Part shown: positions 1,075-43,518 of the stretch, piece by piece
Layout of the letters: every line of letters begins with the position of its first letter
Position numbering within the stretch: the first letter of the stretch is position 1
From: a virus
DNA length: 64,000 nt
Strand: one strand, 5' to 3'
Virus record (IMG/VR): IMGVR_UViG_3300048587_000983
Translations under genes and position numbers: made by a program
Notes under the pieces: generated by a model
Databases searched by the model: none
The model's input: the letters and a program-made list of their open reading frames with translations, nothing else
Told to the model about the DNA's origin: nothing

Positions 1075-1362
1075 ATGAGTTACCACGACGATCTGCCGGT
1101 TCCGTTTGGTTATGAGGTGCCTCAGTTCGTCAAACAGCTTCTTGAAAACTTTGACGTCTGTCTTTTTCAGATGCGCCTCGATCCGGATCCCGATGCGCAT
1201 CTCAGCATCATCCGAAACCTTTACGTCCACGACCTCATTGTCTCGGCAATTGTTGCCCTCAACATGCCGAAGGAAAAGGAGGCCCTCGTAAAGGAGCTCT
1301 CCCAGCAGCTTGAAATTTTATCGGCGCTCACAAACCCTATCGAGGAGGACCTGAAGAACTAA
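1075..1362 (+). CDS. hypothetical helical protein (95 aa)
   Basis: ATG preceded by AAGGA; divergent from 591..896 across an AT-rich gap; converges on terL. Confidence 0.6.
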   Translation: MSYHDDLPVPFGYEVPQFVKQLLENFDVCLFQMRLDPDPDAHLSIIRNLYVHDLIVSAIVALNMPKEKEALVKELSQQLEILSALTNPIEEDLKN

Positions 1363-4300
1363 GCCTGCGGCCCGTCGAGCGCCACGGCGTCGAGGGTATA
1401 GCGGCGGCTTTTTCCTGTCATGATATCGGACATGAGTTTCGCATAGTTCATCGAATGGAAATAATCGTCGGGGTCGGAGGGTCTATGATCATATTTTATC
1501 TCGCGGCGATATTCGTTGTACTCGGCGTAAATGCCAAGAATATCCTTTGCAAACGGCTCAAAGTCCTTCCAGCGCGGAAAAAGGATAAGACCGTGTTTCA
1601 TATCAAAGAAAAGCTCTGACATGATGAAGTTTCGCTGCAGTTGATAGCGGTAGCCGATAGCATCCCACTTCATTCTTTGCTTGAGCTTGGGCATATACTG
1701 AAACTGGGCCACGCGGTTGGGGCCAAAGGTCCGCATGAGGACGTTGTTAACCCCCCAGCCGTGCCCCCAGTCGGCACCGATAAGCTTGACGCCAAGAAGC
1801 TGGCAGATGCGCGTGATGTCTTTAACGACAAAGTCCGGATCCACCTCGCGTCCTTCGTACCGTTTCGCATAAAAGACTTTCCAGTGTTTCTGCGAGACGT
1901 AAGCCCCTATCGTGAGAACGGTATAGCTTGCGTTTCGTATTTTCCCGGAAGGCGACTTCTCGGAGCCATCATTCCCCTCGCCCCAATCGACGCCGGCCGT
2001 CAGACCCCATTTTTTGGCTTCCGCCTGGGCCGCGCGAATGCCTTCGGGGGTCGTGAGGTTCCAGAGCGAATAGTCGCCGCAGGCCTCGATAATCTCATCG
2101 CGCGTTATAGGCTTGGATGCCGAGTCGTAGGAAAGGCCAAGCACCTCGTTTGCAAGCTGCCCGTAGGGATAGTTGTCCCTTTTCCAGAGAAGCTTCATCC
2201 ACTGATCGTAGAGCCCGCAGATCCACGGCACCATGAGCTGGGGGACGCGGAAGCCCTTGATCATGTTGTTCGGATAAAACTCAACCCACCGGCCCGTCGA
2301 AGGGTCGATCGGCTTATGGCATTTTTTGCAAATGGGGCCAGGCGGAAGGCGCTTCGTTTGATACCACTCGGTCGGGCCGATGTTTTCCTCGTCGAGAAAA
2401 TTCCACTTGCCGCAGTGTGGGCACGGCACCAGCCACTCGGCCTGTGTCGTGGACTGCCAGTAGATCTCGATCGGGTTGTCGTGGGACTTCGGTGTGCCCG
2501 CCATGAGGTTGGAGGCGTCGGGAAAGTGGGACGTACACTCCATGATAACGGGAATTTCTGTCGTGAGGAAATCCTGGATCTCGTCAAGGCAGAGCACCCT
2601 CGCCGATATACCCCTCGTTCTATCCGCCGAACGGAATGCAGAGCGAAGGAAGATGTAGCTGCCGTTTGTGAAGCCCTTCTCAAAGACCTGAGTCGAAACC
2701 GAGCTATCCTGAAAGTAGCGGGCGATGAGAGGCGAGCGCTCGATTGCCGGCCGCAGCTTTTCGTTCGAGAACTGCCGCGTCTGAGTGTGCGACGGCGAGA
2801 CGTAGAGGGCCTTGTTGTAGGGGATGACGACCGAGGTGACGGTGAGGTTATTGGCAAGGAAGGTGGTGTTGTGCTGCACCAAAAAATCTGAAACATAGGT
2901 GTGAGTTTCAGTTTCTATGCCCCAGGTGTCTTGGACACCAATATCCTCAATTGATTCGATCTGGTCCCAGATTATGTCAGCTGCTAAAACGTCTGCCAGG
3001 TCTGGATCACAGAGCGTCTCGTTTATTTTTCTTATCTTTCCGAATGTCGGGGCATAGCTTCTATTGATTCTAAGACCTTGAGATTGAAGACCAGTTCTTT
3101 TCCAGTAGTTGCCGCCACGGCGTCTTGCCAATTCAACAAGATCGTAAACCTCGCTCGGTAAAGTATCGAGGTTACTATTGGAGGCCGTTCCGGGTAAAGA
3201 AAAGGGCTTGCCTGGAATCGGGCCGATTTTATTATAAAACGCCTCGATTGAATCTCTTGTGACGACACGAAGGATATAGGCCAGCTGCCCTCCGGTTGAC
3301 GGGCGATTCTCACGCACCGTAGTTACAATGCCGAATCTACGGAGCAAAAGACGAACCTGCCTCGCCAAAGTCTTGCTTGTAGTACAAAAGACGAGGTCTA
3401 TCTTCGATGAGGTTACGTTCTTGCAATGCCCGTCAGTGGCCCAAAGCCCCCGTAATAGTTGAACAGTGGAATCTGGCCCCAACTGCATCGCCTTGGAGGG
3501 GATGGTTTTTTCGGAGGCCCGTTTTCCAAAGATGCCGGTCTCCTGAAAATATTGATAGATCTGAGATTTTTTGGATATGTAGTAATTCCGCGTGCCTGAG
3601 CGCGGGTCGATCGAGAACTCGCAGGGGCCGTAGAGCGACTCAAACCAGTCTTGGACGACAGGGTTTTTTGCTGTAAACCTTTGGCAGTTTTCTGTCATGG
3701 AGCCATCGCCGATCATCAGCCCCAGTAGCGCGGCCGTGGGGTCCTCAGCCTCAAGAAAAAAACCCTGAGTGCGAAGACTCGCTATGCGGTCGCCTGGTCT
3801 GAGGTCGGCTGCCTGTCGCCACCCGAGCAGCATCCGCAAGGGGTGGTTATGGGTAACCTCCACGGTGGAGCCGAGGCGTGTTCGGATCCTAAGACAGGGT
3901 TTGGCTCCGTTAAACTCCGCCGCTATCACGCGATCCGCAGTCTGCCTGCCGTTTTCGCCAAGCGCCACTATCTCGTCGCCAGGCCTAAGGTCACGTATGG
4001 CTTTCTCTTCACCATATCGCGTCAAAACGAGGGACGTGCCGGTCTGGCACTTCTCCACTTGGCGGGCAGTCTTAAGAAGGATTCGCTTGAAGTTGCCGTC
4101 GTAGATCGGGCGGAGATAGCCCCTTCCGGTGAAGTCGAATTTATGGCCGTCAAGATAGATGAGGTTTCGCACAAAGTCCGACTTTTTGGCCTTCAGGATC
4201 TCCCGGAGCGTTCCGTCCTGGTTGACCGTGCTGCGGAACGCGGCCACCGTCCGCTCGGAGACAGCAGGCGGTTTGTCGTCATACATCCGCGCCTCAAAGG

Positions 4301-4376
4301 CGTCCGATCCCAGCTCTTCCTCGAGATCGATGTCGTCACCGATCCGCTTGTCACCGTTGTCACCGATTGTTCCCAT
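1359..4376 (-). CDS. terL: terminase large subunit, intein-containing (about 611 aa after splicing)
   Basis: Walker A KTARQVEK|TT split by an intein, Walker B VLCLDEIQD, motif III AGTPK, RNase H-like nuclease acidic motifs GVDWG and DDYFHS. Confidence 0.93.
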   Translation of the reverse strand: MGTIGDNGDKRIGDDIDLEEELGSDAFEARMYDDKPPAVSERTVAAFRSTVNQDGTLREILKAKKSDFVRNLIYLDGHKFDFTGRGYLRPIYDGNFKRILLKTARQVEKCQTGTSLVLTRYGEEKAIRDLRPGDEIVALGENGRQTADRVIAAEFNGAKPCLRIRTRLGSTVEVTHNHPLRMLLGWRQAADLRPGDRIASLRTQGFFLEAEDPTAALLGLMIGDGSMTENCQRFTAKNPVVQDWFESLYGPCEFSIDPRSGTRNYYISKKSQIYQYFQETGIFGKRASEKTIPSKAMQLGPDSTVQLLRGLWATDGHCKNVTSSKIDLVFCTTSKTLARQVRLLLRRFGIVTTVRENRPSTGGQLAYILRVVTRDSIEAFYNKIGPIPGKPFSLPGTASNSNLDTLPSEVYDLVELARRRGGNYWKRTGLQSQGLRINRSYAPTFGKIRKINETLCDPDLADVLAADIIWDQIESIEDIGVQDTWGIETETHTYVSDFLVQHNTTFLANNLTVTSVVIPYNKALYVSPSHTQTRQFSNEKLRPAIERSPLIARYFQDSSVSTQVFEKGFTNGSYIFLRSAFRSADRTRGISARVLCLDEIQDFLTTEIPVIMECTSHFPDASNLMAGTPKSHDNPIEIYWQSTTQAEWLVPCPHCGKWNFLDEENIGPTEWYQTKRLPPGPICKKCHKPIDPSTGRWVEFYPNNMIKGFRVPQLMVPWICGLYDQWMKLLWKRDNYPYGQLANEVLGLSYDSASKPITRDEIIEACGDYSLWNLTTPEGIRAAQAEAKKWGLTAGVDWGEGNDGSEKSPSGKIRNASYTVLTIGAYVSQKHWKVFYAKRYEGREVDPDFVVKDITRICQLLGVKLIGADWGHGWGVNNVLMRTFGPNRVAQFQYMPKLKQRMKWDAIGYRYQLQRNFIMSELFFDMKHGLILFPRWKDFEPFAKDILGIYAEYNEYRREIKYDHRPSDPDDYFHSMNYAKLMSDIMTGKSRRYTLDAVALDGPQA
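2868..4049 (-). mobile_element. intein with LAGLIDADG homing endonuclease (394 aa)
   Basis: Starts at Cys110 (CQTGTSLV), block B THNHP, LAGLIDADG blocks LLGLMIGDGS and LLRGLWATDGH, ends VQHN followed by +1 Thr. Part of it is visibly lower in GC than the flanks. Confidence 0.95.
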
Positions 4377-11479: not shown

Positions 11480-11661
11480 CCCCTTCTTTTTTCAAAGCCT
11501 CGCCAGAAAGCTTTTTTCTCTTCGTGATCTTCATGGAGACCGACCTTGGCTTCGAGCTTTTGCTCTTTCGGGCTTTCCGCAGCTTCCTGCTCCTTTGATT
11601 CCCGCCGCTCATGGCTCAGAAGGAGCGCTTTCAGATCTTTCTTCGACACATCGTCTCTCAT
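11476..11661 (-). CDS. charged 61-aa peptide ending in FWRGFEKRRG
   Basis: ATGA overlap with the helicase stop; carries the recurring motif at its C-terminus. Confidence 0.6.
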   Translation of the reverse strand: MRDDVSKKDLKALLLSHERRESKEQEAAESPKEQKLEAKVGLHEDHEEKKAFWRGFEKRRG

Positions 11662-13088
11662 GGCTTTTCGCTTCCTTTTTCACGGAGAATATTCAAAAAC
11701 TGGTCGTTCAGAGCATCCTTTTGCGCCGAGAGCATGTCGAGGTACTCATCCACACCAGAGTCCGCTTTCCTGCGTAAAACTCTCTGCAGGAAGGTTTTTG
11801 GAACGGTCGAATGGAACTTCTGAACATGGACATTCCTCTCTTCCGGCGGAAGGTGCTCATGGCTTTTAAAGCGGACGCCCCGGCCCTCAGCCTGCTCCAG
11901 CCGTGAGGTGTTCCAGTGCGGTTCCAAAAGCTGCATCAATTTTGTGCCTTTGAGGTCCAGGCCTTGAGCGCCTGCGCCAGAGATGAGGAGGGCCTTTGCT
12001 CGTCCGGCATTATAATCCTCCACCGCTTGCTTTCGTTTCGCATCAGAGAGTGTCCCGTCAAATACAGCGTGTGGAACACCAAGATTGGCAAGATGTCGCG
12101 CATATTCCTTCACTCCGGAATCGAGGTAGTTTGAGTAGACGACCGCCTTGAAGTTAGGGTCTTTTTGCATACGTTTTTGGAACTCGTCGATCGCCCGCTG
12201 AATTTTTGGAGAAGTCTCCGTTCCCCCAAACCCTCTCGTGCTATTTGATATTTGCCGCGGTCCGGAAAGGAAGGAATTGAGCGACTTGCTCTCCTGTTTG
12301 TTTGGCGGCAAGCCTCGACGAATCTTATAACGAAGCCCAGGACCTGCCTTGTCGAGGACGAAGTCGTAATATTTCATCTGCTCGGCATTCATCGGGACCT
12401 GGATCGTCTCGCGGCTCACAGCGGGAAAGTTCTCCCGCGCCGGCGCGTGATAGTCCACATAGCCCTTCACGAGATCAGCGAAGCGCTCGGGGTTTTTGAT
12501 TTTGTACTCGACCCCTGGTTTTGCCCCATGAAAGATTCGGGCCAGGAGTCCGGGGCTTTTCATGACCTCTGCTATGAAGGCCTTGTCGAAGGCCTTGGGG
12601 TCGGACGGTATTTTCGTATCGCCACGCACCATGGCCATAAGAGGGCCGATCTCGTGCGGGTAGTTGCGGATAGGAGTGCCTGTGAGAAGAATCCGCTTGT
12701 CGTAATCGCGCGCCTTTTGAATCATCTCCTGAGTCCGCTTGCTGTCGGTGCGACCGAGCATGTGGGCCTCATCGACCACAAGAGCGTGGCCCGTAGGTGG
12801 CGTCTTCACGGCCTTTTCGTAGCTCATGATGTTCGGCTTGTGGCCAGTCGTATGCTTTTGTACCTCTTTCGCATAGTTCTGACGAAGAGCCGCTGGTACA
12901 ACGACATCGGTTTCGTCACCTTGCGTCGCGGCCAGGGAGGTGAGCGTCTTGCCGCTTCCAAGGCCGTGATAGACAAGAACGCCCGGCTTTTTACCGAGCC
13001 TTTGCTGAACGCGGATCTGCTGCGGCTCCAGCTTGGTTGTGGTTTTTAGTTTGGCTCTCTTCTCAAAACCCAGCCAGAAGCTGTGCAT
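11658..13088 (-). CDS. SF2 (SNF2-related) ATPase/helicase resembling poxvirus D6/D11 (VETF small subunit/NPH-I) (476 aa)
   Basis: Motifs YHGLGSGKT, DEAH, LTGTP, GAGAQGLDLK, LLEPHWN..RLEQAEGRGVRFKSHEHLPPEERNV. True start ATG 13088 with GGAGGAG SD; N-terminus MHSFWLGFEKRA. Confidence 0.9.
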   Translation of the reverse strand: MHSFWLGFEKRAKLKTTTKLEPQQIRVQQRLGKKPGVLVYHGLGSGKTLTSLAATQGDETDVVVPAALRQNYAKEVQKHTTGHKPNIMSYEKAVKTPPTGHALVVDEAHMLGRTDSKRTQEMIQKARDYDKRILLTGTPIRNYPHEIGPLMAMVRGDTKIPSDPKAFDKAFIAEVMKSPGLLARIFHGAKPGVEYKIKNPERFADLVKGYVDYHAPARENFPAVSRETIQVPMNAEQMKYYDFVLDKAGPGLRYKIRRGLPPNKQESKSLNSFLSGPRQISNSTRGFGGTETSPKIQRAIDEFQKRMQKDPNFKAVVYSNYLDSGVKEYARHLANLGVPHAVFDGTLSDAKRKQAVEDYNAGRAKALLISGAGAQGLDLKGTKLMQLLEPHWNTSRLEQAEGRGVRFKSHEHLPPEERNVHVQKFHSTVPKTFLQRVLRRKADSGVDEYLDMLSAQKDALNDQFLNILREKGSEKP

Positions 13089-13110: not shown

Positions 13111-13491
13111 TCAAATGGTGCCAAGCATAAGCTCTTCGTCTTCGCCCGTTCGCGCAAGATAGCGGAGGTATTCCTTCTGTTCTTTTGGAGGCATGGCGAG
13201 AACTCTTTTGGCTTCCTCGATACCCCGCTTCTGGGCGATCGCCCTAAGGACCCCGGCCAGCCCGCCGACAGCCAAGCCGGCCGCACCTCCGGCAAAAGCC
13301 CCAGGGACAGCGCGGTCCGCGGCACCGAAAAGAGCCCCCGTAACCCCGCCTAAACCAGCTCCGACGAGACCTCCTTTTAGTTTCGACAGCGGTTTTTTCT
13401 GCGCTGATTCTTCGAGCTCTTTTTTAAGAACACGAGCCTCGTAATCGTAGTCGTAAGCCCGCTTTTCAAAGCCGTTCCAAAATGCATGCAT
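13111..13491 (-). CDS. glycine-zipper membrane protein with N-terminal FWNGFEKRA motif
   Basis: GGLVGAGLGGVTGALFG / GAFAGGAAGLAVGGLAG; start overlaps the RNAP stop (TGATG). Confidence 0.8.
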   Translation of the reverse strand: MHAFWNGFEKRAYDYDYEARVLKKELEESAQKKPLSKLKGGLVGAGLGGVTGALFGAADRAVPGAFAGGAAGLAVGGLAGVLRAIAQKRGIEEAKRVLAMPPKEQKEYLRYLARTGEDEELMLGTI

Positions 13492-16400
13492 CAGTATTTC
13501 CCTTCCTTGCCTTTGCCAAACTCCGCTCCGTAGGCGAACGCCGGGATCGGATGGTAGTCACTCGTATTCGTGCTCCAGCCTTGCGAGGCCCCGGTCGTCA
13601 GCGCGCGCTGCAGCTGCTGATAGCCGAGAGCAGCCATCCAGTCTTTTCTCAAAAGAGGCAGATTGCGCACGGATTTGAGAAGTGGCGCATGAACTATGGG
13701 ATCCTTTTGAATCTTAACCGTTTTCACCGTGGCCGAAAGCCGGGAGATGTCCTCAGGGGTCATCTCGTGCCCCGCGCGAAGGCCTCCGGCAGACTCGGCG
13801 AGCTTAAAGCCGAGGCTCTCTTCGATCGGCACGTCCTGGGCGAGGTTTTTGTTGTGGTGCTGGGCCACCGTATAGGGGATCACATCCCCCGGAAGATAAC
13901 CCGTCCCTTTGGGAGCGTTCTGCACCTGGGTCGTATTGCCCATGGACCGCACAACGGTCTCAAAAATCTTTTTGTGGAGATTGACCCCCTGGCCCTCGTA
14001 GCTCTTTTTGAGCTCGGTGGCGAGGTAGTCCTGGGCGGCGTCCATCCCGAGGTGTTTCACGAGATCCTGGGGCTTGATAGGCCCCTCAGAAAGCGGCTCA
14101 CCACGCCTGACCTGCGAGCCCACCTGCACGCGAAGAGGTTTGCCCTGAGGAACATGCGCCTTTGTGTCTTTACCGATCGTCACGACAAAGCCGCCACCAA
14201 GACCCTTTTCGATCTTTGTCACCCGGCCATCGACCGGGGCAAGTGGCGCAGCGCCTGCGACCTGCTTTGGCATCTGAAGAAGCTGATCGATCCGGGCGTA
14301 GCCCTGAACGTCGGCCCCTGTGCCGGCAGCCCCGCCCGTGTGGAAAGTTCGCATCACCATCTGCACCAGCGGCTCACTTATCGTCTGGCCTGCCTTGGCA
14401 CCGATGTTCTCGCCTATCTCAGGCATGTGACCGTGCTCGTCGAGGCCATAGCACTTCGCGCATGTGCCTTTTGGGGCAAGACAGCGAAGTGGCGAGCGGA
14501 CCTTGATGCTTGAAAGACCGCGTTTTTTCAGCTCGTTGACCACCTTCGTGTCAACCAGGGTATTGTGAGAAAAGCCGCCCTGATCGCCCGCGAGGAAGCG
14601 GTCGTAGACATCGGTGTCCTCGATCTTGTGAGCGACCCCTTCTTTCGTTCCGCAGTCCTCTTTTGATATGACGTTTCCGATTGTGGTCGCCATGATGTCT
14701 TTTGAAAAGGCCCCGGGCAGCGAGGTCTGGATCGCCCTATCCATCATGCCTCGACGAGCCCCGTACATGCTGATCCAGTAATCGCCGACGTCCAGGCCTT
14801 CGGCGTAGGATTTTTTTATTGGGGTCGGGATAATGCGGCCCTTTTCGTCGCTCATAAAAAGAGGGGTCGCCACGATCTGCCTGAGCTGGCTTGAGTTGCC
14901 GCGCGCCCCTGAGCGGACCATATCGAAAAGCGGATTGTCTTTCCCTTCGAGCTTTTTCTCGATGACCTTGTCGATAAGGTTCGCCGCGCGCTTGTTGACG
15001 TCCATAAGCCGGGCCTGGTCGGTGGTCGCCGCAGCGGCTCTGGATGCACTCTCGACCACCCTGTCACGGATCGTCCCAAACTGCGCAATGTCTTCAAGAC
15101 CAAGTGTAAAGCCTCTTTCGTATGCGTGCTTTTCACCTTCGGCCTTGAGGTTGGCGACGATACTCGCATAGTCCTGCGGCGGCAGCTCTTTTGAAAGCTT
15201 CATGACAAGAGCCCCGGTCGCCTTTTTATCAAGGACACCCGTGACCTTATATTTCTCAGGCAGAAAGCGATTGAGGCTCTGGCGGCCAGCCGGCGTTTTT
15301 GAAAGGTAGAAAAGCCCAATCTGCGCCTCCTGGGAGGGCTGAATCATAAGCTTGCCCGACCCCGGCTGGAAGAGATTGCGCGAGGGCTTCAGCCGCTCGG
15401 CCTCTTTGTTGGCCTCATCTCCAATCGGCACGTGAACCGTCATCGTATCGCCGTCGAAGTCAGCATTGAATCCTTGAACGATAAGAGGCGGGATCTTGAT
15501 AGCCTTGCCGTCGGTGATCTTGGGCTTAAATGCCATGATCGAGAACTTATGCAGCGAAGGGGCTCTATTCAAAAGAACATGCCGCTGCTTCATGACATTA
15601 TCGAGTGCTCGGCGCGCAGTCTGCGTTTTCTTCTTGATGGCCTCTTTCGCGTCGAGGGGGTTCAGTCCGAAGTTGCGAAGCTCGCGCACGACGAAAGGTT
15701 CAAAGAGCGACCACGCCATAGGCTCGGGCATCGCCATTTCATCGACGCCAAGCGAGGGCTCAGGGATGATCGTCCCGCGGCCGACATAGTCCTGCTGCTT
15801 TGAGAGGAGCTTGCTGATAAAGAAGCCCTCTTTTGGCTGACCACCCGTGCCGCCCTTGATCTCGGCTATAAGGCCGTCCTTCGGCTTTCCTTTCATGGTC
15901 GTATTCGTAAGACCGACGACACCCTTCACGTGCTTATAAAGATCGGCGCGGACATCAGCCTTCGCATCCTCCGAAAGCAGGTCCATGACGGGAAGGTTCA
16001 TCACCGTGTTGACGACGCCCACGTTCTGATAAAGATCGTTCACGGGGGATGTCGCCACCTCGCCCGTTGGCAGTGGGTAGATGGGTCTATAGATGGGAGG
16101 CAGCACCGGAAGCTTTCTTCGGATGTAGGCCTCTTCAGGACGAAGACCTGTCTGCTTCAGCGCCGATAGGTAGCGAAGCTTTTTGTTCATGTCGTCAAGC
16201 TTCGAGCCAGTCGCATTCTGCGCTTTTCGCGTAAGGTTCTTAAGCTCCGCGTCGACGTCCATTTTCTTTAAAAGTGTTTCGATTCCCGCGCCGCCGGTGA
16301 CGCCCGTATGCTCGGTCGTGAGGCTGCCGTCAGGTTTAACGAAAAGCTTTCCTGCAACGATCTCGTCAAATTTCCCCGAGAGCCCGAGAAGTTTTCTCGC

Positions 16401-19400
16401 TGCCTCTTCAAACGCCGGGTTTACGACGGGCTCCTTCAGCTCAAGATGGCCCCACTTGGTTCCCTTGAGGCCGCCGAAGATCTTGCCATCGAAAAACCCG
16501 CCCTTGACGGGCTGAAAGTCCTTGGCGTGATAGAAGTGCGCCTTCTGCACGCCGCCGCTGCTCATCTTTTCGATCTGGGCGTCCGTGAGAGGGGCAAGCG
16601 TGAGTTTGGTCCCCTCCTTTTGGACATCGATGCCGGCCCCCTTCAGATAGGCCATGAATTTGTCGAATACAAACGGGGCCTTGGGCGGCGGCAGCTGCTG
16701 GCCGCTACGAAGTGCCTTCCAGTATTCGTCGTTGACGTTCGCTTTCAGCGAGCTCATCTCACGAAGGTTTGCCCGCGCCCCGTGGGAGAGGAGCGAATAC
16801 ATCGTCAGAAGGTCGAGCGATTTTGAGCCTTCCTCGCCGCCTGTTTTCAGGGGCTGAAGGTTACTGTCATACGGCATCCCAGGTCCGCCCTGGCGAACCG
16901 AGAAGTTGCCGGCCGATTGCTTGAAGAGCTTCAGGATGTATGGGTTTCCGACGTGCACCTGACCGAGGCTTTTGCCAGTCGAAGGATCAAAAAGTTCTTC
17001 CTTGTCAGACACCCCGTTTTCTTTAAGAAACTTTCGAGTTGTGCCAAGATAGTTTTGTCCTGTGAAGTTTTGAACCTTGTATGGAGCCCCAGCTTTGAGA
17101 GCCGCCTTGCCTGCAGCAGACTCGTAGATCTGACCAATGTTGATTCGTCCAATAACTCCGTGAGGATTGAGGAGGATATCGACAGCTCCGCCTCCAGCAT
17201 CCTTCGGCATCTGTCCATCGGGGAGGATTTTTGTGATGATGCCCTTGTTCCCCATGCGTCCCGAGAGCTTGTCGCCGATCTTTGCGCGCTCCTCGGTTCG
17301 TATGAAGACCGTGATCGTTCCCCCAACTTTAACCACTTCAGTGACAACGCCTTCGTCCTCGCCCGTCCAGCGAACGCTGGCATCCCGCGGTCTATCCGCG
17401 AGGGTTTTGGAGATAACCGCGATCTGAGCATCCCGATTCTTCCTCTCCATTGCTGCGATGATAATATCACCCGAGCGGACGCGCGAACCTTTTTTGATAA
17501 CGCCATCAGAACCAATTTTTGAGGCGTTGTCCGGACTCAGGAGCGCCGGGTAGTTCAGCCGGAAAAGCCCCTTGTCGAGAGTTGACTGGGGTGTTACCGC
17601 GTAGGATTTTTTGTGTATGTGCTCGCTCGTGAGCTTCTCAGCCGCAGACTCCGAGATTACAATCCCGTCCTCGAAGTTGTAGCCCTTGTAGGGAATATAT
17701 GCGGCGCGCAGGTTTGTGCCGAGCGCCAGCGTCCCGCCTTTTGTAAAATTGCTCTCCGCGAGGAGCTGATCCTTTTTCACCCGCTCCCCGACCTTGACCA
17801 CGGGCGTATGATGGAGAAAGCTTTTCCGGTTGAGCGAGAAGTTATTATAGAGGCTAATCTTCCGATCACCTCCAGCCGTCGTAAGAACGATCTCGTCCTC
17901 GCCAACCTTTTTTACAGTGCCTTCTTCAGGGGCACGAATCGCCACCTGGCGCCCGACGACCTCCTCCATGGATTGGCCGGTTGAAGTTCCGACTTGAACA
18001 AGCGGCGCCTCCCGGTGCTTAAGGCCGATGGCCTGCTCCAGCATTTTCGAGGCCATCATCGCCCGGTTCCCCTGGTTTGAGGGAAGAAAGGGGACAAGGT
18101 TTGTCGATGGAGAGAAAAGGGCCTCGGCGGTTGGCGTGAAGTAATCCACCTTGGAGACGGGCACCATAACGATCTGCCCGCGGTAGAGGGCCTTGACCGT
18201 ATCGCCCTTTTGCCCCGGAAAAGCCACGTACTTCTCCCAGCTTTCAATTGGCGTGAGAGCCTCAGGCTGCCCCGTCTTTGCATTTTTCAGGATGGCCTTA
18301 AGATTCTTGCCGTCCTTGATCACGCCCATTGGAAGGTGGAGGTTGACGCCTATTCGTTCTGATTCAGGCGTGTGGACGGGGTCTATGAAACCGTAATGCG
18401 AAGGGTGGACCTGCCGCATCTCGTCTTTGATTGCATGGCGCGATGTGATCCCGCCCGAACCCATGAAAGTCGCCTTGTGTCCGCCGGATAGCATCTCAAG
18501 GGGATTTGTCTGCTCGGGCGTTGCCGCCTTGTCGTCCTGCGTGAAAAACCCCTCGACCGTAGACGAGAACGCGGCCGGGTTTACGAGCTGGCTTATCTTC
18601 ACACGGCGCGGGTTATCGACCTGTCTTCGGATCTTGCGCTCCAGCTCTGTGCGGTTCTTTTCAAGACGCTCGGCTATGAAATCCTCCACGCTATGGATTT
18701 CTTTAAACGCGAGGGAGTCCCTGTCCACGGGTTCTTTTTTTCCAAGCTGCACATCAAGAAGGTTTTTGGACGCGGCCAAGAGCATTGGCCCATCGACCCT
18801 CTCAAACGAAGTCCCAAGCACCAGTTTCGTCGTATCCGCCGGCAGAGACGTTTTTCCAAAATACTCTCTGAGACCATCTTTTTTAACCCCGAACGCGGTT
18901 TCAGCACGCTGCACCGCTTTCGGATCAGTATTTTTGTTGGCCGCCTCTAGTTTGGAACCCCAGGTTTGAGCCATGAGTACAGGAGAGACGCCGAGATGAG
19001 TAAGAATAGGATAAAGAGGAATATTCGTCTGACCCCCGCCGATTTTCTGGATGGTGAAGACACCACTCCTCTCATCAAACGCGAGGTCAAAGTTCCTTCC
19101 TCGTGCCAGGTTAACTTGGGTTTTGAGTTGTCCATTTTGCTTCCTTATCGTGTAGACGCCAGAGCGCAGGCGAAGCTGGTTGTTCACCTGATACTCGTTG
19201 CCGGCGACGATATACGACGAGCGCGCCGTTGCCGTTGGAAGAAGAAAGAGCCTCACTTTCTCCGCGCGGTCAATCACTTTTCCTGTCGAATTTTCGACGA
19301 GTGACAGCGAGGCGTACACAGGAACCCCCCATGTCCCCTCACGAAGCTTTGTCTTTGCCTGGCCGGAAAAGTCGTCCGGAGCGGCTTTGTCGTCGGTCCA

Positions 19401-19517
19401 GACGTTATCAAGCTTCATCGTGCGGATTCGCCCAGTCACCGGAAAAATCGATCGGACGGCATTTACCGCAGCACTCTTCACCGATTCAGTTTGCTGTTTG
19501 GCGTCAAAATTTCGCAT
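13491..19517 (-). CDS. rpoBC: phage DNA-directed RNA polymerase, fused beta-beta' (2008 aa)
   Basis: beta motifs YNFEDG, GDKLSGRMGNKG, LLNPHGVIGRINIGQ; beta' motifs LLNRAPSLH, NADFDGD (15447-15467), GARG, bridge helix GARRG, CGT/C/CAKC zinc site, trigger loop MRTFHTGG. Confidence 0.97.
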   Translation of the reverse strand: MRNFDAKQQTESVKSAAVNAVRSIFPVTGRIRTMKLDNVWTDDKAAPDDFSGQAKTKLREGTWGVPVYASLSLVENSTGKVIDRAEKVRLFLLPTATARSSYIVAGNEYQVNNQLRLRSGVYTIRKQNGQLKTQVNLARGRNFDLAFDERSGVFTIQKIGGGQTNIPLYPILTHLGVSPVLMAQTWGSKLEAANKNTDPKAVQRAETAFGVKKDGLREYFGKTSLPADTTKLVLGTSFERVDGPMLLAASKNLLDVQLGKKEPVDRDSLAFKEIHSVEDFIAERLEKNRTELERKIRRQVDNPRRVKISQLVNPAAFSSTVEGFFTQDDKAATPEQTNPLEMLSGGHKATFMGSGGITSRHAIKDEMRQVHPSHYGFIDPVHTPESERIGVNLHLPMGVIKDGKNLKAILKNAKTGQPEALTPIESWEKYVAFPGQKGDTVKALYRGQIVMVPVSKVDYFTPTAEALFSPSTNLVPFLPSNQGNRAMMASKMLEQAIGLKHREAPLVQVGTSTGQSMEEVVGRQVAIRAPEEGTVKKVGEDEIVLTTAGGDRKISLYNNFSLNRKSFLHHTPVVKVGERVKKDQLLAESNFTKGGTLALGTNLRAAYIPYKGYNFEDGIVISESAAEKLTSEHIHKKSYAVTPQSTLDKGLFRLNYPALLSPDNASKIGSDGVIKKGSRVRSGDIIIAAMERKNRDAQIAVISKTLADRPRDASVRWTGEDEGVVTEVVKVGGTITVFIRTEERAKIGDKLSGRMGNKGIITKILPDGQMPKDAGGGAVDILLNPHGVIGRINIGQIYESAAGKAALKAGAPYKVQNFTGQNYLGTTRKFLKENGVSDKEELFDPSTGKSLGQVHVGNPYILKLFKQSAGNFSVRQGGPGMPYDSNLQPLKTGGEEGSKSLDLLTMYSLLSHGARANLREMSSLKANVNDEYWKALRSGQQLPPPKAPFVFDKFMAYLKGAGIDVQKEGTKLTLAPLTDAQIEKMSSGGVQKAHFYHAKDFQPVKGGFFDGKIFGGLKGTKWGHLELKEPVVNPAFEEAARKLLGLSGKFDEIVAGKLFVKPDGSLTTEHTGVTGGAGIETLLKKMDVDAELKNLTRKAQNATGSKLDDMNKKLRYLSALKQTGLRPEEAYIRRKLPVLPPIYRPIYPLPTGEVATSPVNDLYQNVGVVNTVMNLPVMDLLSEDAKADVRADLYKHVKGVVGLTNTTMKGKPKDGLIAEIKGGTGGQPKEGFFISKLLSKQQDYVGRGTIIPEPSLGVDEMAMPEPMAWSLFEPFVVRELRNFGLNPLDAKEAIKKKTQTARRALDNVMKQRHVLLNRAPSLHKFSIMAFKPKITDGKAIKIPPLIVQGFNADFDGDTMTVHVPIGDEANKEAERLKPSRNLFQPGSGKLMIQPSQEAQIGLFYLSKTPAGRQSLNRFLPEKYKVTGVLDKKATGALVMKLSKELPPQDYASIVANLKAEGEKHAYERGFTLGLEDIAQFGTIRDRVVESASRAAAATTDQARLMDVNKRAANLIDKVIEKKLEGKDNPLFDMVRSGARGNSSQLRQIVATPLFMSDEKGRIIPTPIKKSYAEGLDVGDYWISMYGARRGMMDRAIQTSLPGAFSKDIMATTIGNVISKEDCGTKEGVAHKIEDTDVYDRFLAGDQGGFSHNTLVDTKVVNELKKRGLSSIKVRSPLRCLAPKGTCAKCYGLDEHGHMPEIGENIGAKAGQTISEPLVQMVMRTFHTGGAAGTGADVQGYARIDQLLQMPKQVAGAAPLAPVDGRVTKIEKGLGGGFVVTIGKDTKAHVPQGKPLRVQVGSQVRRGEPLSEGPIKPQDLVKHLGMDAAQDYLATELKKSYEGQGVNLHKKIFETVVRSMGNTTQVQNAPKGTGYLPGDVIPYTVAQHHNKNLAQDVPIEESLGFKLAESAGGLRAGHEMTPEDISRLSATVKTVKIQKDPIVHAPLLKSVRNLPLLRKDWMAALGYQQLQRALTTGASQGWSTNTSDYHPIPAFAYGAEFGKGKEGKY

Positions 19518-19545
19518 AGAAGTTGATATAAGCCTCCTGGCGGAG

Positions 19546-19564
19546 CGTTTAACTTTTCACTTTG
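19546..19564 (-). promoter_or_regulatory. candidate phage promoter element CAAAGTG-AAAAGTTAAACG
   Basis: The 12-mer AAAAGTTAAACG recurs exactly upstream of 37748; CAAAGTG-N8-AAACG recurs upstream of 36537. Confidence 0.35.
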
Positions 19565-19668
19565 AAAGGGGTTCTATAGACAAACTAGAGTAGTTTTCGT
19601 GAAAAATCACCTTTTCTTTCCGATGAGTTGTTTCTGAATGAACTGGCTTTACACAAGGAAGGCAAGCC

Positions 19669-20199
19669 ATGTCGATTAACGCTGAATTTGAAGCTGAAGT
19701 TTCGTCTGACCACGATAGTCCTTTTTCAAAAGCGCCCGGTGGAAACCCTTTCGGGGGTTTTGCGGGAGAGACGGGTGGAAACCCATTCCGCGATTCCCCC
19801 GGGGCGCAGCAGCGGAAATCGCCAAGCGGCGGATCGAAGCCGAACTTTGTGGTACGCGCGTGGCGAGTTGTGAAGGACTTCTTCGTCGGTATCGGAAGGG
19901 CTGTATTTTCACGACAGTTCTGGGTTGATTTTATAGCAACAGCGCTCCGTGATGCGCTTGCCGCTCTTGGGTATTCGATCGGCATGCGAATGGTCAAGAA
20001 AGCTGCGGCGACCGGTGACATCATCTTCCGTGACAAGAGCGGAATGGTGTCAGAGACTGAAGCAGCTGCGCAGGGTACGGCGTATGCGAGCCAGCAGTCC
20101 TGGCCGCCAAGAGCAAGGCCATCAGGTGGTTCCGTCCAGGACAATCTCATGGCTTACCCCGCTGACAGGCCGTACGCACAACGGTCGTTTGTAAACTGA
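19669..20199 (+). CDS. hypothetical protein (176 aa)
   Basis: AAGGAAGG SD; divergent from RNAP; central amphipathic helices. Confidence 0.7.
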   Translation: MSINAEFEAEVSSDHDSPFSKAPGGNPFGGFAGETGGNPFRDSPGAQQRKSPSGGSKPNFVVRAWRVVKDFFVGIGRAVFSRQFWVDFIATALRDALAALGYSIGMRMVKKAAATGDIIFRDKSGMVSETEAAAQGTAYASQQSWPPRARPSGGSVQDNLMAYPADRPYAQRSFVN

Positions 20200-20216
20200 G
20201 AAGGTTTGCGCATCGG

Positions 20217-20253
20217 TGCGCCCTGGGATCCCAGGGCGCATTCTCATTTTTTT
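20217..20253. terminator. intrinsic terminator (perfect 24-bp palindrome) between convergent genes
   Basis: TGCGCCCTGGGATCCCAGGGCGCA at 20217-20240, T-tract at 20247-20253. Confidence 0.65.
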
Positions 20254-20507: not shown

Positions 20508-20701
20508 GTCACCACCAGCTCCAAGTGATCCTGAATCGAGGTGATGCGCCCTGTGTCCGGGTCCATCTCCCGATTCGATATTTTTTCCTTGATGCGGTCG
20601 AGGATCTGCGCGTTTGGGTTATTCAGGATCGCCTCGTACTCTGCGCAGTCCTCTTTGTCATTGAGGTTGAACCGCTTTACAAATTTTCTTGTCGTATACA
20701 T
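20483..20701 (-). CDS. hypothetical protein (72 aa)
   Basis: Start coupled to the portal stop at 20701. Confidence 0.65.
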   Translation of the reverse strand: MYTTRKFVKRFNLNDKEDCAEYEAILNNPNAQILDRIKEKISNREMDPDTGRITSIQDHLELVVTWQERTLL

Positions 20702-22731
20702 TAAACCGCTCCCTGCCGCCGCGGAACCTTCTGCTCAGGCAAAGGGTCCATGCCTACGCCGCCACCACTGGGCGCTGGCGTGGGAGAGCCTGCACCACCT
20801 TGCATCGGCGCGGCTTCGCCCGAGCCCTCAGCGCGCAGCTGATTGAGACGGGTTTCGATACGCTGACCAACCTCGGGCATTTTTTGTTTCACCTCGGAGA
20901 GCGTAAGGGCGGCTTCACCGGGCGAAAGGCTCATCAACTGGCGAGCCCAGGAATCGACTTTCGAGTCGATTTGCTGACCAAGAGCCTTGTCTTCCTTGCC
21001 GCCGGCAGCCGCTCCACCTGCTGTGCCCGGCAGGCCTTGAGCCGTAGCAGCGCCGGGTGCGCCCCCTCCAGCTCCGCCTCCAGGGCCGGCAGGTCCGCCT
21101 GCAGAGGGGTCACCGCCGCCGGGTGCATTTGGATCAGTTGGCTGATCGAGGGGACCAGGAATCCCAAGCCTCTGAGCCCGCTCCTGTGCAGCCACCTGGG
21201 CCTTCTCGGAAAGCTCCTGAAGTGTCTGCTGATAATTAAACTGAATGAGCGAGGCCTCACCCTGCGAGCGTGCACCTGATTTGCTTTGTAGATCCATGAT
21301 GTAGTTCTGGACATGCTGCTCTTCGATAAGTTTTTTGGTTTCCGACTCGTAGTCGTAGCCGAGTTCTGTGAGAAGAGTTTGGTCGCTGATCTTCCGCTGA
21401 GCGTTAAGCCCGATGAGCTGCTGATTCCTTTGAATATCGTCAGCCATACGAAAGTCGGAGAACCGGATATCCTTTACGTCAGAGAGGTTGAGCCATGTGC
21501 GCAGCTTGTCTTTCAGCCAAAGAGTAAAATCAAGAAGCTGGCTTCTATTCTGGATAAAGTCGTTCTCGAGCGTCCGAAGCGAAACGCTCGACCCTGTCCA
21601 GTTGAGACCACCAAAGAGGAACTCCTGCGGAAGCCCGAGCCCACCGACAACTGTCTGCGTGATGTAGTTGATTTCAGGCGCGAGGAGGAGCGCTTTTCCG
21701 TCACCACCAAGTCGCCCAAAGCCAATCGGGATAGGGATAACACCTTTGAAGTTGGGATCGCGGCGGTGCTTTGTGATGACGTTTTCAACCTGCTGCCGCC
21801 AGCTGGCAAGGTCCGTATGAATGTAGGGGTCCTGCTGCGCGTTTGGAAGCGGGTAGATCATATCGAAGGGGACGATATGCTCCATCGCAATCGCTTCCTG
21901 CGCACGCCTGAGGGTATAGAGGTAATACATATCCTTCAGGACGTGGATGATTGCAGGCTTGCCCCAGCCCTGGTCCTGCTCAGCCAGTGTCGGAGCTTTC
22001 AGGTGTTTGATGTTATCTGAGTTGAAGCGAATCATCCGGCGGTTTTTAAGAGCTTCAAGGACGATGATGGGAATGTCCTCGATGATGTCCTTGTCGCCGC
22101 GAAGGATGGCATTACGAAGCTTTCCGGGCACCGAGTACATATAGATGTAGCGGCCCGTATATTCGTTGAACTTGATGTGGATATTTTCAGGGTTCCAGCG
22201 GACTATCCGGATCCCTTTTCTACTTCGATAAGGGACGTCTTTTACGGTCACCTGCCCCGTGTGGTTGCAGCGTGAACAGGTCCCCGAGAACTGATAGTCG
22301 GCCCCGCGAAACGTCCAGTCCCATTGGCGAATAGGCTGGCTGTTGCGACATTCCTTACAGACGAGAAACCGCGTGAAAGGGAAGTGGATACTGACGAACG
22401 CGTTGCCGTAAGTATGGTAGTCGAGGTTAATCTCCATGAGCTTGTCTTTGATGAAAAGCTCTTTGTTGAGAATCTTGTCCCAGACGTTACGGTTGCTCTC
22501 CTGGTCGTCCTCGATGATAAGGTCTGTGATCGGGTACCGCGAAACCTTCTTCATCGCAGCCCCGATGAGGGGGCTGTTGTAGTAGTAGTAGGTGCACCAG
22601 CGGAAAAGCTCCTTGATCGTCGGCGGCATGTACTGCTGCGCGAGGTCAAAGAACTGGTTTGGATACCGCTGGCCCCTCATGTCTCCGAGGGCAAGCGAGG
22701 GCTCGGCCAGGCGTTCCTGTGGGTTGGTCAT
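20701..22731 (-). CDS. putative portal protein (676 aa)
   Basis: Size and helical/beta pattern typical of large-phage portals (YYNSPLIGAAM, RWNPENI, WGKPAII, FSDFRMADD); CxxC...CxxC insert; Pro/Gly C-tail. Assigned by pattern, not by search. Confidence 0.62.
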   Translation of the reverse strand: MTNPQERLAEPSLALGDMRGQRYPNQFFDLAQQYMPPTIKELFRWCTYYYYNSPLIGAAMKKVSRYPITDLIIEDDQESNRNVWDKILNKELFIKDKLMEINLDYHTYGNAFVSIHFPFTRFLVCKECRNSQPIRQWDWTFRGADYQFSGTCSRCNHTGQVTVKDVPYRSRKGIRIVRWNPENIHIKFNEYTGRYIYMYSVPGKLRNAILRGDKDIIEDIPIIVLEALKNRRMIRFNSDNIKHLKAPTLAEQDQGWGKPAIIHVLKDMYYLYTLRRAQEAIAMEHIVPFDMIYPLPNAQQDPYIHTDLASWRQQVENVITKHRRDPNFKGVIPIPIGFGRLGGDGKALLLAPEINYITQTVVGGLGLPQEFLFGGLNWTGSSVSLRTLENDFIQNRSQLLDFTLWLKDKLRTWLNLSDVKDIRFSDFRMADDIQRNQQLIGLNAQRKISDQTLLTELGYDYESETKKLIEEQHVQNYIMDLQSKSGARSQGEASLIQFNYQQTLQELSEKAQVAAQERAQRLGIPGPLDQPTDPNAPGGGDPSAGGPAGPGGGAGGGAPGAATAQGLPGTAGGAAAGGKEDKALGQQIDSKVDSWARQLMSLSPGEAALTLSEVKQKMPEVGQRIETRLNQLRAEGSGEAAPMQGGAGSPTPAPSGGGVGMDPLPEQKVPRRQGAV

Positions 22732-34968: not shown

Positions 34969-35484
34969 TTAATGGTGGCTCGAAATCGGCAGAGGCTCAG
35001 GTTCAGATGAGGTTTTTTGCTCACCTTTCAATGATTTCAGGCGACTGACGAGCAACGTTGGTACAGCGAAACCCAGGGCCCGCATGTTCTCCATGATGCT
35101 GATAGCCTCGGTCGCTGCCAAAAAAGTGATCATGATCACCGACGCAAAACCCATGGGAAGGGTTTTATCGACGAGCGACGCCGTGGCGATAAGAAGAAGG
35201 TAAACGGTGCATTTGAGCGAAAAGCGGAAAAACCCGTGGCTTGAAAGCTTTCCAAACTTGTATGCTTTGAAAGCGCCCGAGATGGTGTCGATAAAAATAA
35301 GACAGGTGACCGCGGCCAGACCCTGGGTGTTGCCTTGAAAGACCCAGTGAAAGCCAAAAGCGACGGCTGAGAGGGCTGCCTTGACCCCCGCGTGGTCACT
35401 GATTTGCACGAGCACCGTATGAAGCTTTGTAAAGCTGAAGTGGTCAGTGTAGTCGATCTGTGTCGGGTCGCGTCCAGCTGCCAT
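34969..35484 (-). CDS. phage holin (Phage_holin_4_1 / Cph1-like)
   Basis: LIFIDTISGAFKA...TEAISIMENMRALGFAVP signature; three hydrophobic segments; GGAGG SD. Confidence 0.85.
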   Translation of the reverse strand: MAAGRDPTQIDYTDHFSFTKLHTVLVQISDHAGVKAALSAVAFGFHWVFQGNTQGLAAVTCLIFIDTISGAFKAYKFGKLSSHGFFRFSLKCTVYLLLIATASLVDKTLPMGFASVIMITFLAATEAISIMENMRALGFAVPTLLVSRLKSLKGEQKTSSEPEPLPISSHH

Positions 35485-36663: not shown

Positions 36664-37176
36664 TCAGTCTATTGTACCTTCAAAACCCACCGGCACAAAA
36701 TGGAAAAAGGCGAGGTTGCAGAAGTTGCCAAGGTCAATCACATCCCGATAGTGTGGGTGGTCTGTCCCGCTGTACGCGAGAGCCTCGTTCGGCTGCAGAA
36801 TGTAAGGTTCGTCGTTGACGTAAATGGGCCAGGGGTCGCGCTGGCTCACGCAGAGGTCGATCGTATATTTGCACTGCGGGCGATCCGTGTGAAGAGGGCA
36901 GATGCCGCCCTCGCCGTACATGGAAAGAAACACATAGCTCGGCTTCACAGGCTCCGGAAAGATCGTCTCCGCAATACGCGCGAGATGCGGAGAATGATGG
37001 AGTCGGCGAAGAAGAGGCAGGTTATGCCAATACCAGCGATTGAACTTGCTGTGCATCTCTGCGTCTTTATCGTGGTACGGCGTACCCTCAAAAGCACGCC
37101 GGACCTCGCGTATGTGCACGGCCAGATCGCTAAAGACAGCTTCCGGAAAAAGTTCTTTTACAACGGTCGGTCTCAT
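36664..37176 (-). CDS. 2OG-Fe(II) oxygenase
   Basis: H-x-D (LHTD) and a distal His (HPHYR); ATG 37176 overlaps the upstream stop. Confidence 0.78.
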   Translation of the reverse strand: MRPTVVKELFPEAVFSDLAVHIREVRRAFEGTPYHDKDAEMHSKFNRWYWHNLPLLRRLHHSPHLARIAETIFPEPVKPSYVFLSMYGEGGICPLHTDRPQCKYTIDLCVSQRDPWPIYVNDEPYILQPNEALAYSGTDHPHYRDVIDLGNFCNLAFFHFVPVGFEGTID

Positions 37177-37748
37177 CTGAATGGCTCCCCCGAAACCCAT
37201 GCGACAAGAGATTTGCGAACACCCTTCGTCACGGGTTTTACACCATGGATTTCAAAACTTGGAAAAACGACGACAGTGCCCTGCTTGAATCTATGTTCGC
37301 CGCCGGCAAAGAACACAAGCTCGCCACCCTCGTAAGTTTCAGGGTCAGTGAGCATAAGGACCATGCTGAGCTTTCGCTGAGCCATCTGGTTTTTACCGAA
37401 GTCTGAGTGAAGGCGGTAGTGGGAACCCGAGTCGTCGTAAATTGTATACTGGAGCTTTTCCATGAAGCCGGTAAGCTGGAAACGATATCGGGCTTCGTTG
37501 GCGCCGCGTACGATGTAGCCAAGCTTATCGAAAAGCCAGGCTGTCTGCTCTTCAAAGCCGATCCACGAGTTCTTGGACTTGCGAGTTTCTTCGTAGATGC
37601 CGCCATCTCCCACCCTACTCTCAAGGGTTTCCAGGTGATCGCCGAGAGCAATGATTCGCTCGCATTCCTCTTTTGTAAAAGCGTCTTCAAAGAAGCAGTA
37701 GTGCTCAAAATCGGGCCGAGGCTCGTTGTGGAAGATATAAAACGTCAT
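37173..37748 (-). CDS. 2OG-Fe(II) oxygenase, prolyl-4-hydroxylase/PKHD type
   Basis: YRLHSD, RKLSMVLML, YEGGEL, FPSFEIHGVKPVTKGVRKSLVAW (HxD...H...R). Confidence 0.9.
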   Translation of the reverse strand: MTFYIFHNEPRPDFEHYCFFEDAFTKEECERIIALGDHLETLESRVGDGGIYEETRKSKNSWIGFEEQTAWLFDKLGYIVRGANEARYRFQLTGFMEKLQYTIYDDSGSHYRLHSDFGKNQMAQRKLSMVLMLTDPETYEGGELVFFAGGEHRFKQGTVVVFPSFEIHGVKPVTKGVRKSLVAWVSGEPFR

Positions 37749-37788: not shown

Positions 37789-37800
37789 CGTTTAACTTTT
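37789..37800 (-). promoter_or_regulatory. candidate phage promoter element AAAAGTTAAACG
   Basis: Exact match to the 12-mer upstream of RNAP, in the same orientation. Confidence 0.35.
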
Positions 37801-37813
37801 GAGATATCTCTGA

Positions 37814-38071
37814 CTATGCGATTTTAGAGACATCAAAGTCAAGGCGTTGTCGCGTGGTATTGTCGGAGAAGCAGTATTCGATATAACCCTTGGTGGGCGT
37901 CAAATCGAACTCCGGATTGTGGACTTCAAACTTCGGCGCGTTGATACCGCCTGGCCACTCGGCGGGGTTGATCGTGTCCTTGAGCCAGCCGCCTGAACGC
38001 AGAACGATGAGCTTTGAAGCCTGCTCACTCGTAAGGGAAAGCTCTTTTGCAACAATGTCCTTGACCTTCAT
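37814..38071 (-). CDS. small hypothetical protein (paralog of 38090..38404)
   Basis: K.IVAK.L...L..LR.GGW is shared with the neighbour; AGGAGG SD. Confidence 0.7.
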   Translation of the reverse strand: MKVKDIVAKELSLTSEQASKLIVLRSGGWLKDTINPAEWPGGINAPKFEVHNPEFDLTPTKGYIEYCFSDNTTRQRLDFDVSKIA

Positions 38072-38089
38072 TTCTGCCTCCTTTCGATA

Positions 38090-38404: not shown

Positions 38405-38452
38405 AAAGACCCCTTATGCTTACTAACGTTTTAGAAACCCGTATCGAATGCA

Positions 38453-40954: not shown

Positions 40955-40965
40955 ATCACCGCTCC

Positions 40966-43509: not shown

Positions 43510-43518
43510 GAAGCGGCC

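Follow-up and report, generated by a model that had tools for sequence, protein, structure and literature searches.

The window analysed here is a 64,000-nucleotide (nt) stretch of viral DNA (IMG/VR record IMGVR_UViG_3300048587_000983). An open reading frame (ORF; P0001) at nt 13491-19517 on its minus strand encodes a single-chain RNA polymerase (RNAP) of 2008 amino acids (aa). The ORF begins with an ATG codon, contains no internal stop and represents one gene with a product of 225 kDa. A portal gene lies upstream, and genes for a small membrane-like protein and an SNF2-family ATPase follow downstream. Judged by its domains and motifs, this single polypeptide comprises the whole catalytic core of a bacterial-type multisubunit RNA polymerase. 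Features of the polymerase gene described below are all on the minus strand, and residue numbers refer to the 2008-aa chain unless another protein is named.

Pfam profiles divide the chain into two parts. The β part contains Rpb2_3 (residues 335-395, E 1.8e-11) and Rpb2_6 (residues 542-879, E 3.7e-56), and the β′ part contains Rpb1_1, Rpb1_2 (E 1.2e-28), Rpb1_4 and Rpb1_5 (E 1e-24) within residues 1088-1749. The β module, delimited with Pfam, AlphaFold2 (AF2) and Foldseek, occupies residues 1-966 (nt 16620-19517) and includes the protrusion, a reduced lobe, the fork, the flap and clamp parts. The β′ module occupies residues 971-2008 (nt 13494-16607) according to Pfam, AF2 and VIA-align. The four residues between them, KEGT (967-970, nt 16608-16619), form a linker whose spacing is fixed across the fused family. 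In alignments with bacteria, AGIDVQ (961-966) corresponds to the last residues of β and KLTLAPLTD (971-979) to β′ from residue ~15; therefore, the two subunits are joined head to tail via four residues.

The structural models agree with this division. Both halves were modelled by AF2 with confidence, the predicted local distance difference test (pLDDT) score being 82 for β and 83 for β′. The β half matches full-length bacterial β chains in Foldseek (E 3e-74, template modelling (TM) score 0.76, ~1075 columns). The β′ half superimposes on E. coli β′ 16-1367 and on Gram-positive β′ 5-1181 with a VIA-align Z of ~33 and a root-mean-square deviation of 4.2-4.9 Å (4.8 Å for E. coli) over ~968 residues.

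The active centre is conserved. The active-site lysine motif of β, GDKLSGRMGNKG (residues 748-759, the GDK..GRxGNKG lysines), carries K750 and K758. In β′, alignment and motif search located the catalytic loop NADFDGD at residues 1351-1357 (nt 15447-15467), and alignment placed the bridge helix at residues 1580-1612 (nt 14682-14780) and the trigger loop, which does not have the E. coli SI3 insertion, at residues 1706-1747 (nt 14277-14402). The second zinc site (nt 14451-14660) is formed by C1622, C1679, C1686 and C1689, which are the only cysteines of the protein. Both lysines, the aspartates D1353, D1355 and D1357 and all four cysteines are invariant in an alignment of 29 family sequences of 47-85% identity. 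A preliminary description of the locus had presented the product as a collinear, single-chain bacterial-type β-β′ phage enzyme in which NADFDGD, the bridge helix, the trigger loop and the second zinc site are intact, with a junction AGIDVQ-KEGT-KLTLAPL at about nt 16610-16630. The motifs and domains all lie within the one ORF, and the junction is located at nt 16581-16637. From its sequence, it is almost certain that this catalytic core is functional.

Many homologs in the family (P0007-P0104) contain inteins of 340-515 aa, between one and three per protein, whose fixed sites correspond to positions after residue ~386 (the HTPES fork motif), ~1357 (inside NADFDGD) and ~1724 (the trigger loop MRTFHTGG), and in one case at ~595. 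Inteins at the catalytic loop, trigger loop and fork region are typical of essential enzymes. The longest intein-bearing homolog reaches 3221 aa; the window polymerase carries no intein.

The C-terminal end, HPIPAF..GKEGKY (nt 13494-13553), is also conserved. Of 238 full-length family proteins, with identities as low as 34%, 196 end in Tyr and 7 in Phe, and the 4-8 residues before the last one are variable. The terminal Tyr is possibly a docking or packaging signal.

Compared with E. coli, the β part lacks segments 17-40, 225-357 (SI1 region), 935-1046 (SI2) and 1129-1182, and the β′ part lacks segments 69-100 (zinc ribbon), 152-168, 517-572, 944-1131 (SI3) and the last 30 residues. Relative to the Staphylococcus pair, which itself has no E. 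coli insertions, 389 residues are still missing, and thus the chain is ~16% shorter than the smallest bacterial pairs compared (Staphylococcus and Saccharibacteria open frames, ~2400 aa versus 2008 aa). The chain had been called streamlined; it is shorter than every bacterial pair compared, but most of the difference from E. coli comes down to E. coli-lineage insertions (SI1, SI2, β 1129-1182 and SI3) that it does not have. The losses specific to the family are the β′ zinc ribbon and a few short segments. The N-terminal ribbon of β′, which in E. coli occupies residues 69-100 and has four cysteines, would align at IFGGLKGTKWGHLEL (nt 16437-16481). This 32-residue segment is missing from every family row of the alignment, and no Cys-rich segment follows the junction in the family members tested.

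Surfaces that contact partners and inhibitors in bacteria are altered as well. The clamp coiled-coil, whose helices dock sigma in bacteria, is present (nt 15912-16049 by alignment), with E. coli R270, R271, R275, R278 and R281 replaced by Q, N, V, V and L, respectively. The flap tip is ~6 residues shorter than its aligned bacterial counterpart. In the counterpart of rifampicin cluster I (nt 18450-18548 by alignment), the substitutions relative to E. coli are Q513 to A, F514 to T, D516 to E, H526 to G and S531 to T. Because the rifampicin pocket is diverged, the sequence suggests an enzyme insensitive to rifampicin.

The fused design is shared by many phages. The identical protein occurs on 10 public contigs, the longest being a 180,819-bp metagenome contig of the Joint Genome Institute (JGI). 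The published genome of Salmonella phage Arash (OQ632216), whose protein is only ~33% identical, is also 180,819 bp long, which was taken as a coincidence. A word-indexed search returned more than 120 clusters (90% identity level) at 45-85% identity to the window protein; nearly all are 1990-2040 aa long, and the longer members carry inteins. In an exhaustive HMMER search with the β′ half, the best 150 clusters (50% identity level) were all of the fused family, and in full-length matches the β′ part begins near residue 1010-1045 of a protein of ~2000 aa. In IMG/VR, the family is present on 147 contigs of up to 226 kb. A simple motif search found both sides of the junction in 60 family proteins, and the spacing is identical in all of them. 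With the same protein on 10 contigs and the fused form common to the best 150 clusters, the fusion is real and did not arise from misassembly.

Database proteins that seem to be unfused relatives are mostly artefacts of contig ends or runs of N. One (P0268) is cut by the contig end, two (L124 and L126) have breaks coinciding with N runs after the β′ N-terminus, and one (L127) is fragmented. On a further contig of 115 kb (L125:2894-9210), β (1036 aa) and β′ (1069 aa) are separate ORFs that overlap by ATGA exactly at the junction and keep the usual spacing, and this split may be genuine and secondary, or it may stem from a single wrong base in the assembly. The architecture is not uncommon: hundreds of phages known from uncultured material have it, as do a small number in culture, and the fused polymerase is the hallmark of a very large and old lineage of tailed phages whose genomes measure ~130-230 kb.

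The phylogenetic position of the family was assessed with IQ-TREE (LG+C20 with posterior mean site frequencies, PMSF; quick search; 2017 columns, 36 rows; unrooted). The rows comprised 27 family members, seven bacteria and the pair formed by Yersinia phage YerA41 and Cobetia phage Carin-5, with no archaeal or eukaryotic outgroup. Rows for the seemingly unfused relatives were left out, most of these being artefacts. The family, the bacteria and the YerA41/Carin-5 pair each fall on one side of a branch with a Shimodaira-Hasegawa-like approximate likelihood ratio test (SH-aLRT) support of 100. The family and the bacteria are separated by ~2.1 substitutions per site, and the depth inside the family exceeds that among bacterial phyla. 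Over ~1900 aligned columns, the identity of the window chain to β plus β′ is 27.5-28.6% for four of the seven bacteria compared, versus 54-56% between bacterial phyla in the same alignment. The window chain shares its length of ~2000 aa, the fixed short junction and the absence of the zinc ribbon with the family, and is monophyletic with Arash and Vibrio phage D69.

These data bear on a trivial explanation of the locus, namely a recent capture of a bacterial rpoBC operon, a cellular gene whose contig was mis-assigned or two genes joined artificially during assembly. Homologs are plainly named β or β′ subunits in JGI annotations, and a scan of 185,579 species genomes (one per species) found 5 copies, all on large contigs of metagenome-assembled genomes (MAGs) labelled as bacteria. 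Five phyla are represented among these MAGs, and every one of them carries an ordinary rpoC on another contig, which fits mis-binned phage contigs. Rather than nesting in a bacterial clade, the family forms a separate long branch at 28% identity, and hundreds of independent contigs have the same junction with fixed spacing. The window itself carries markers of phage DNA: a terminase large subunit (GpA_ATPase) gene on the minus strand (1359-4376) with an intein containing a LAGLIDADG endonuclease (Hint, Intein_splicing and LAGLIDADG_3 domains), the portal gene, a baseplate J gene (58817-61270), a gene for a tail-fibre-like protein and a holin gene (Phage_holin_4_1; 34969-35484, minus strand). 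As far as the bacterial sampling goes, a recent bacterial capture is excluded, and the whole explanation is extremely improbable and is refuted as far as present data go.

Among cultured phages, full-length matches were confined to Salmonella phage Arash and Vibrio phages D69, D148 and D181 (32-34% identity). They belong to the same family and share the gene order portal, small gene, polymerase and SNF2 helicase. Their polymerase genes are cut within β′, at a point close to residue 1422 of the window chain. In Arash, gp206 (1525 aa) spans the junction and contains β and the catalytic part of β′, and gp216 (606 aa), beyond ~4.7 kb of inserted genes, is the remainder; in the Vibrio phages, the gap contains small ORFs or a homing endonuclease. 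The window copy, in contrast, is uninterrupted. Since Arash and the Vibrio phages nest within the fused family in the tree, the split is secondary.

Arash also provides data on virion composition. Mass spectrometry coupled to liquid chromatography (LC-MS) of an Arash phage suspension listed 116 proteins, of which Gp206 was the most detected, with 3516 spectra, 100% coverage and 128 unique peptides (PMC10585845). The spectra numbered 1210 for Gp216, 1148 for the helicase Gp217, 877 for the portal protein and 467 for the sigma factor Gp10 (PMC10585845). Per residue, the spectra of the polymerase are at least as numerous as those of the portal. By analogy, a virion RNAP is a plausible reading of the window polymerase.

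The position of the gene is relevant to the same question. The upstream neighbour encodes a portal protein of 676 aa (nt 20701-22731, minus strand; PHROG portal E 8.7e-6) with 31% identity to the Arash portal gp204 (E 2e-78). A portal gene lies upstream on the same strand in 57 of the 67 related loci with enough flank, including loci down to 34% identity. Between the polymerase and the portal are two small ORFs and, on the plus strand, a divergent 176-aa gene and a terminator. The 176-aa gene (nt 19669-20199) has no assigned function; it possesses a good ribosome-binding site and is called on an identical contig. Just past it lies the terminator for the plus strand, with a 12-bp stem (nt 20215-20252). 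A minus-strand ORF at 19557-20150 (197 aa) is probably spurious, as the overlapping plus-strand gene has the ribosome-binding site, the terminator and the gene call. The polymerase is preceded by a region of 151 nt between the divergent genes (nt 19518-19668) with the ribosome-binding site CCAGGAGG. Thus, with a divergent gene and a terminator between portal and polymerase, the polymerase starts its own unit from the 151-nt region. The preliminary description had placed the gene among morphogenesis genes, between portal and spike genes. The linkage to the portal stands, but the polymerase lies outside the portal operon, and spike genes could not be confirmed.

A 12-mer, AAAAGTTAAACG, is found within the 151-nt region at 19546-19557, with an exact copy at 37789-37800 on the minus strand. 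The first copy lies 29 nt before the polymerase start codon and the second 41 nt before that of a gene for a 2-oxoglutarate-Fe(II) (2OG-Fe(II)) oxygenase (37173-37748, minus strand), and both sites show more similarity ~25-30 nt upstream (ACT.T...T.TCTA.A). With only two copies, the signal is weak, and a shared promoter or leader is a possible interpretation. Occurrences of the 12-mer in the window with up to 2 mismatches were at chance level, the number of intergenic regions being small, and a scan for sigma-70 consensus promoters also gave chance level.

Downstream, a 126-aa Gly-zipper membrane-like protein with the N-terminus MHAFWNGFEKRA is encoded at nt 13111-13491 on the minus strand, its start overlapping the polymerase stop. 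The next gene (nt 11658-13088, minus strand; Pfam SNF2-rel_dom and Helicase_C) encodes the 476-aa SNF2-family ATPase with the N-terminus MHSFWLGFEKRA, an ortholog of Arash gp217 (38% identity, E 2e-92). The first 12 residues of these two proteins are near-identical; the polymerase N-terminus, MRNFDAKQQTES, does not have this tag.

The main rival to a virion enzyme is a polymerase that remains outside the particle. In such a scheme, host RNAP would transcribe the early genes, including the polymerase gene, and the unpackaged phage enzyme would take over the middle and late genes, as do T7 RNAP or the non-virion enzyme of phiKZ. The polymerase gene's own upstream region, with a divergent gene and a terminator before the portal, and an N-terminus unlike the tag of its two downstream neighbours fit this scheme, and so does the Arash list, which also has ribonucleotide reductases, RNA ligases and other enzymes, and for which the authors allow that proteins abundant inside the cell may have been carried over into the sample (PMC10585845). 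However, the polymerase is the only one per genome in five relatives, its linkage to the portal is kept across loci as diverged as 34% identity, its spectra per residue in Arash are at least those of the portal, and the Arash list includes both the sigma factor and the helicase encoded next to it. On balance, a non-virion polymerase appears rather unlikely, though far from negligible.

Partner subunits were sought in the genomes of relatives. Each of the five near-complete relatives has exactly one β match. In these five, no match was found to the profiles of α (PF01000 and PF01193) or ω (PF01192), and all 14 of the 14 control genomes matched. The T7-type RNAP profile PF00940 had no match in the relatives, but it had none in the controls either and is uninformative. 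Sigma-70 region 2 was found in 8 of 22 relatives, usually in a protein of ~195 aa in which region 4 is present too; the annotations of Arash and D69 include sigma factors. A recognisable sigma was present in only 6 of the 14 relatives that are at least 90% complete. In the window, no sigma was found among the 40 ORFs with Pfam or by tblastn with five phage sigmas.

Two further sigma candidates were considered. In two close relatives, the ORF of helicase size that lies downstream of the polymerase has a weak Sigma70_r4 match, below the cut-off, at its C-terminal end; this was treated as chance because it was not seen in the window's helicase. A complex prediction of a relative's β′ clamp region with the 192-aa sigma of the same phage gave a score of 0.01 and is evidence neither way.

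The lack of genes for partners could also mean that the phage chain is only the catalytic core of a hybrid enzyme, recruiting a host α dimer, ω and/or sigma for assembly and promoter recognition. An E. coli enzyme with fused β and β′ still assembles with α, the β′ fold of the window protein aligns as far as E. coli residue 1367, including the C-terminal region, and a sigma is missing from most complete relatives as well as from the window ORFs, just as α and ω genes are missing from the five relatives. On the other hand, the clamp helices no longer have the residues to which sigma region 2 docks in E. coli, the zinc ribbon has been lost and the flap tip is shortened, and host interfaces are unlikely to be kept at 28% identity to any bacterial core. 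In addition, phage enzymes of the phiKZ/AR9 type are active without α (PMC7598289). The hybrid enzyme is therefore regarded as improbable, distinctly more so than a non-virion polymerase.

The reading favoured here, to which we give somewhat better than even chances, is that of a self-contained phage transcription core in one chain, independent of α, probably packaged in the virion and directed by a phage-encoded specificity factor. The covalent link between β and β′ would replace the scaffold of the α dimer, as in the phiKZ and AR9 enzymes, which have no α; if so, the enzyme would transcribe phage genes without the host core. Copies of the polymerase would be synthesised late, enter the head near the portal and pass into the next cell together with the DNA to start early transcription; this is probable because of the analogy with phage Arash and the conserved portal linkage. 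The same single enzyme, as the sole phage polymerase, would serve the later gene classes too. Promoter choice would come from a separate factor, which in part of the lineage may be a small sigma-70-family protein such as those encoded by some relatives; one is found in the Arash proteome. Since the sigma-docking helices are without basic residues and the zinc ribbon is missing, this factor may be a co-evolved or a non-sigma protein. The most detailed form of the scheme, a self-sufficient single-chain enzyme free of α and ω, packaged next to the portal and injected together with a phage initiation factor and, in some lineages, the SNF2 ATPase, is proposed only tentatively.

Several points weigh against the self-contained, packaged core. 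The Arash proteome is the sole experimental hint of packaging, it comes from a relative ~33% identical, and the other enzymes in its list and the carry-over considered by its authors apply here as well. Missing α and ω genes do not exclude the use of host α and ω, and sigma is recognisable in a minority of the most complete relatives and is not found in the window. The SNF2 ortholog is patchy, occurring in 7 of 22 related genomes and not always adjoining the polymerase. The separation from cellular enzymes relies on a tree with seven bacteria as its cellular rows. In the literature, no experiment on the window protein or any close relative was found.

Natural fusions of β and β′ are known in Helicobacter and Wolbachia. 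These are cellular proteins of ~2900 aa, close to their proteobacterial kin, and are assembled with α, ω and sigma. The window protein resembles them in having the β C-terminus joined to the β′ N-terminus, but differs in its 28% identity to all bacteria tested and in the absence of the zinc ribbon.

Phage-encoded RNA polymerases of multisubunit type are already known; what appears new, as judged from the sequences, is the fused architecture without the zinc ribbon. No paper on a fused β-β′ phage architecture was found, in line with the statement in the preliminary description that it had not been characterised biochemically. Reviews on the polymerases of jumbo phages deal with the split phiKZ/AR9 enzymes and, beyond them, mention only the multimeric-RNAP-encoding Caudovirales (mReC) (PMC7598289, PMC7824862). 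The latter are metagenomic phages with deep-branching β/β′ apart from those of cells (Weinheimer and Aylward 2020, PMC7481178). Like the fused family, mReC are uncultured tailed phages with β/β′ recognisable by cellular profiles and with similarly small subunits, but every listed entry has β and β′ as two proteins, often with two sets per contig (PMC7481178). No fused protein of ~2000 aa was found in the published mReC lists, and the IMG/VR sample numbers of the fused family do not overlap with the mReC supplement (PMC7481178). The fused family differs from the listed mReC entries in gene organisation and may be a sister group of that clade or a part of it.

The phiKZ/AR9 enzymes are likewise phage relatives of β/β′ that are active without α, with one set packaged and injected and with a linked SNF2-type helicase (PMC7598289, PMC7824862). 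They differ in that β and β′ are each divided into 2-3 polypeptides, there are two enzyme sets per genome, no sigma homolog is present and the sequences are far more diverged. The window has one chain and strong Pfam matches, and the family has one set, judging by the single copy in each of five relatives. The cultured phages YerA41 and Carin-5 encode bacterial-like β and β′, with an adjacent sigma gene in Carin-5, but as separate genes in the order β′ then β; their zinc ribbon is kept, the catalytic loop is NLDYDGD, and they form a separate long branch at 22% identity. The crAss-like virion RNAP, YonO and the tape-measure RNAP of P23-45 contain both double-psi barrels in one chain, and the crAss and P23-45 enzymes are virion-borne (PMC10770324, PMC7481178). 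Unlike the window protein, which is collinear with the bacterial subunits over ~1900 columns and strongly matches the Pfam β/β′ profiles and PDB sequences, these enzymes are undetected by cellular profiles and are not collinear. The contrast with the split phiKZ/AR9 and the diverged crAss enzymes, drawn earlier from the collinear bacterial-like motifs, is thus borne out.

The remainder of the window contains other features of a phage genome. A gene for a DnaJ-domain protein (56843-57652, minus strand) lies among tail and baseplate genes. The G+C content rises to 59-63% at 38001-44000, compared with ~55% elsewhere, and the GC skew in this region is strongly negative. The rise spans two minus-strand genes (38453-43509), whose products of 833 and 847 aa have no Pfam match.

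If the most detailed form of the scheme is true, the lineage would follow a strategy of bringing its own transcription machine into the cell, like N4 or poxviruses, with an enzyme of cellular type, and the enzyme would be the smallest natural bacterial-type core, without a zinc ribbon or canonical sigma docking. If the chain is active alone, it would represent the most compact natural bacterial-type RNA polymerase core and a minimal system for studying the roles of the α scaffold, the zinc-binding domain and the lineage insertions; it would also bear on promoter recognition with altered sigma-docking helices and on the packaging and ejection of so large a protein. Cultured members grow on Salmonella and Vibrio, which makes these questions testable now. 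The family is more diverse than bacterial phyla are among themselves and bears on the debate over deep-branching phage polymerases such as those of mReC.

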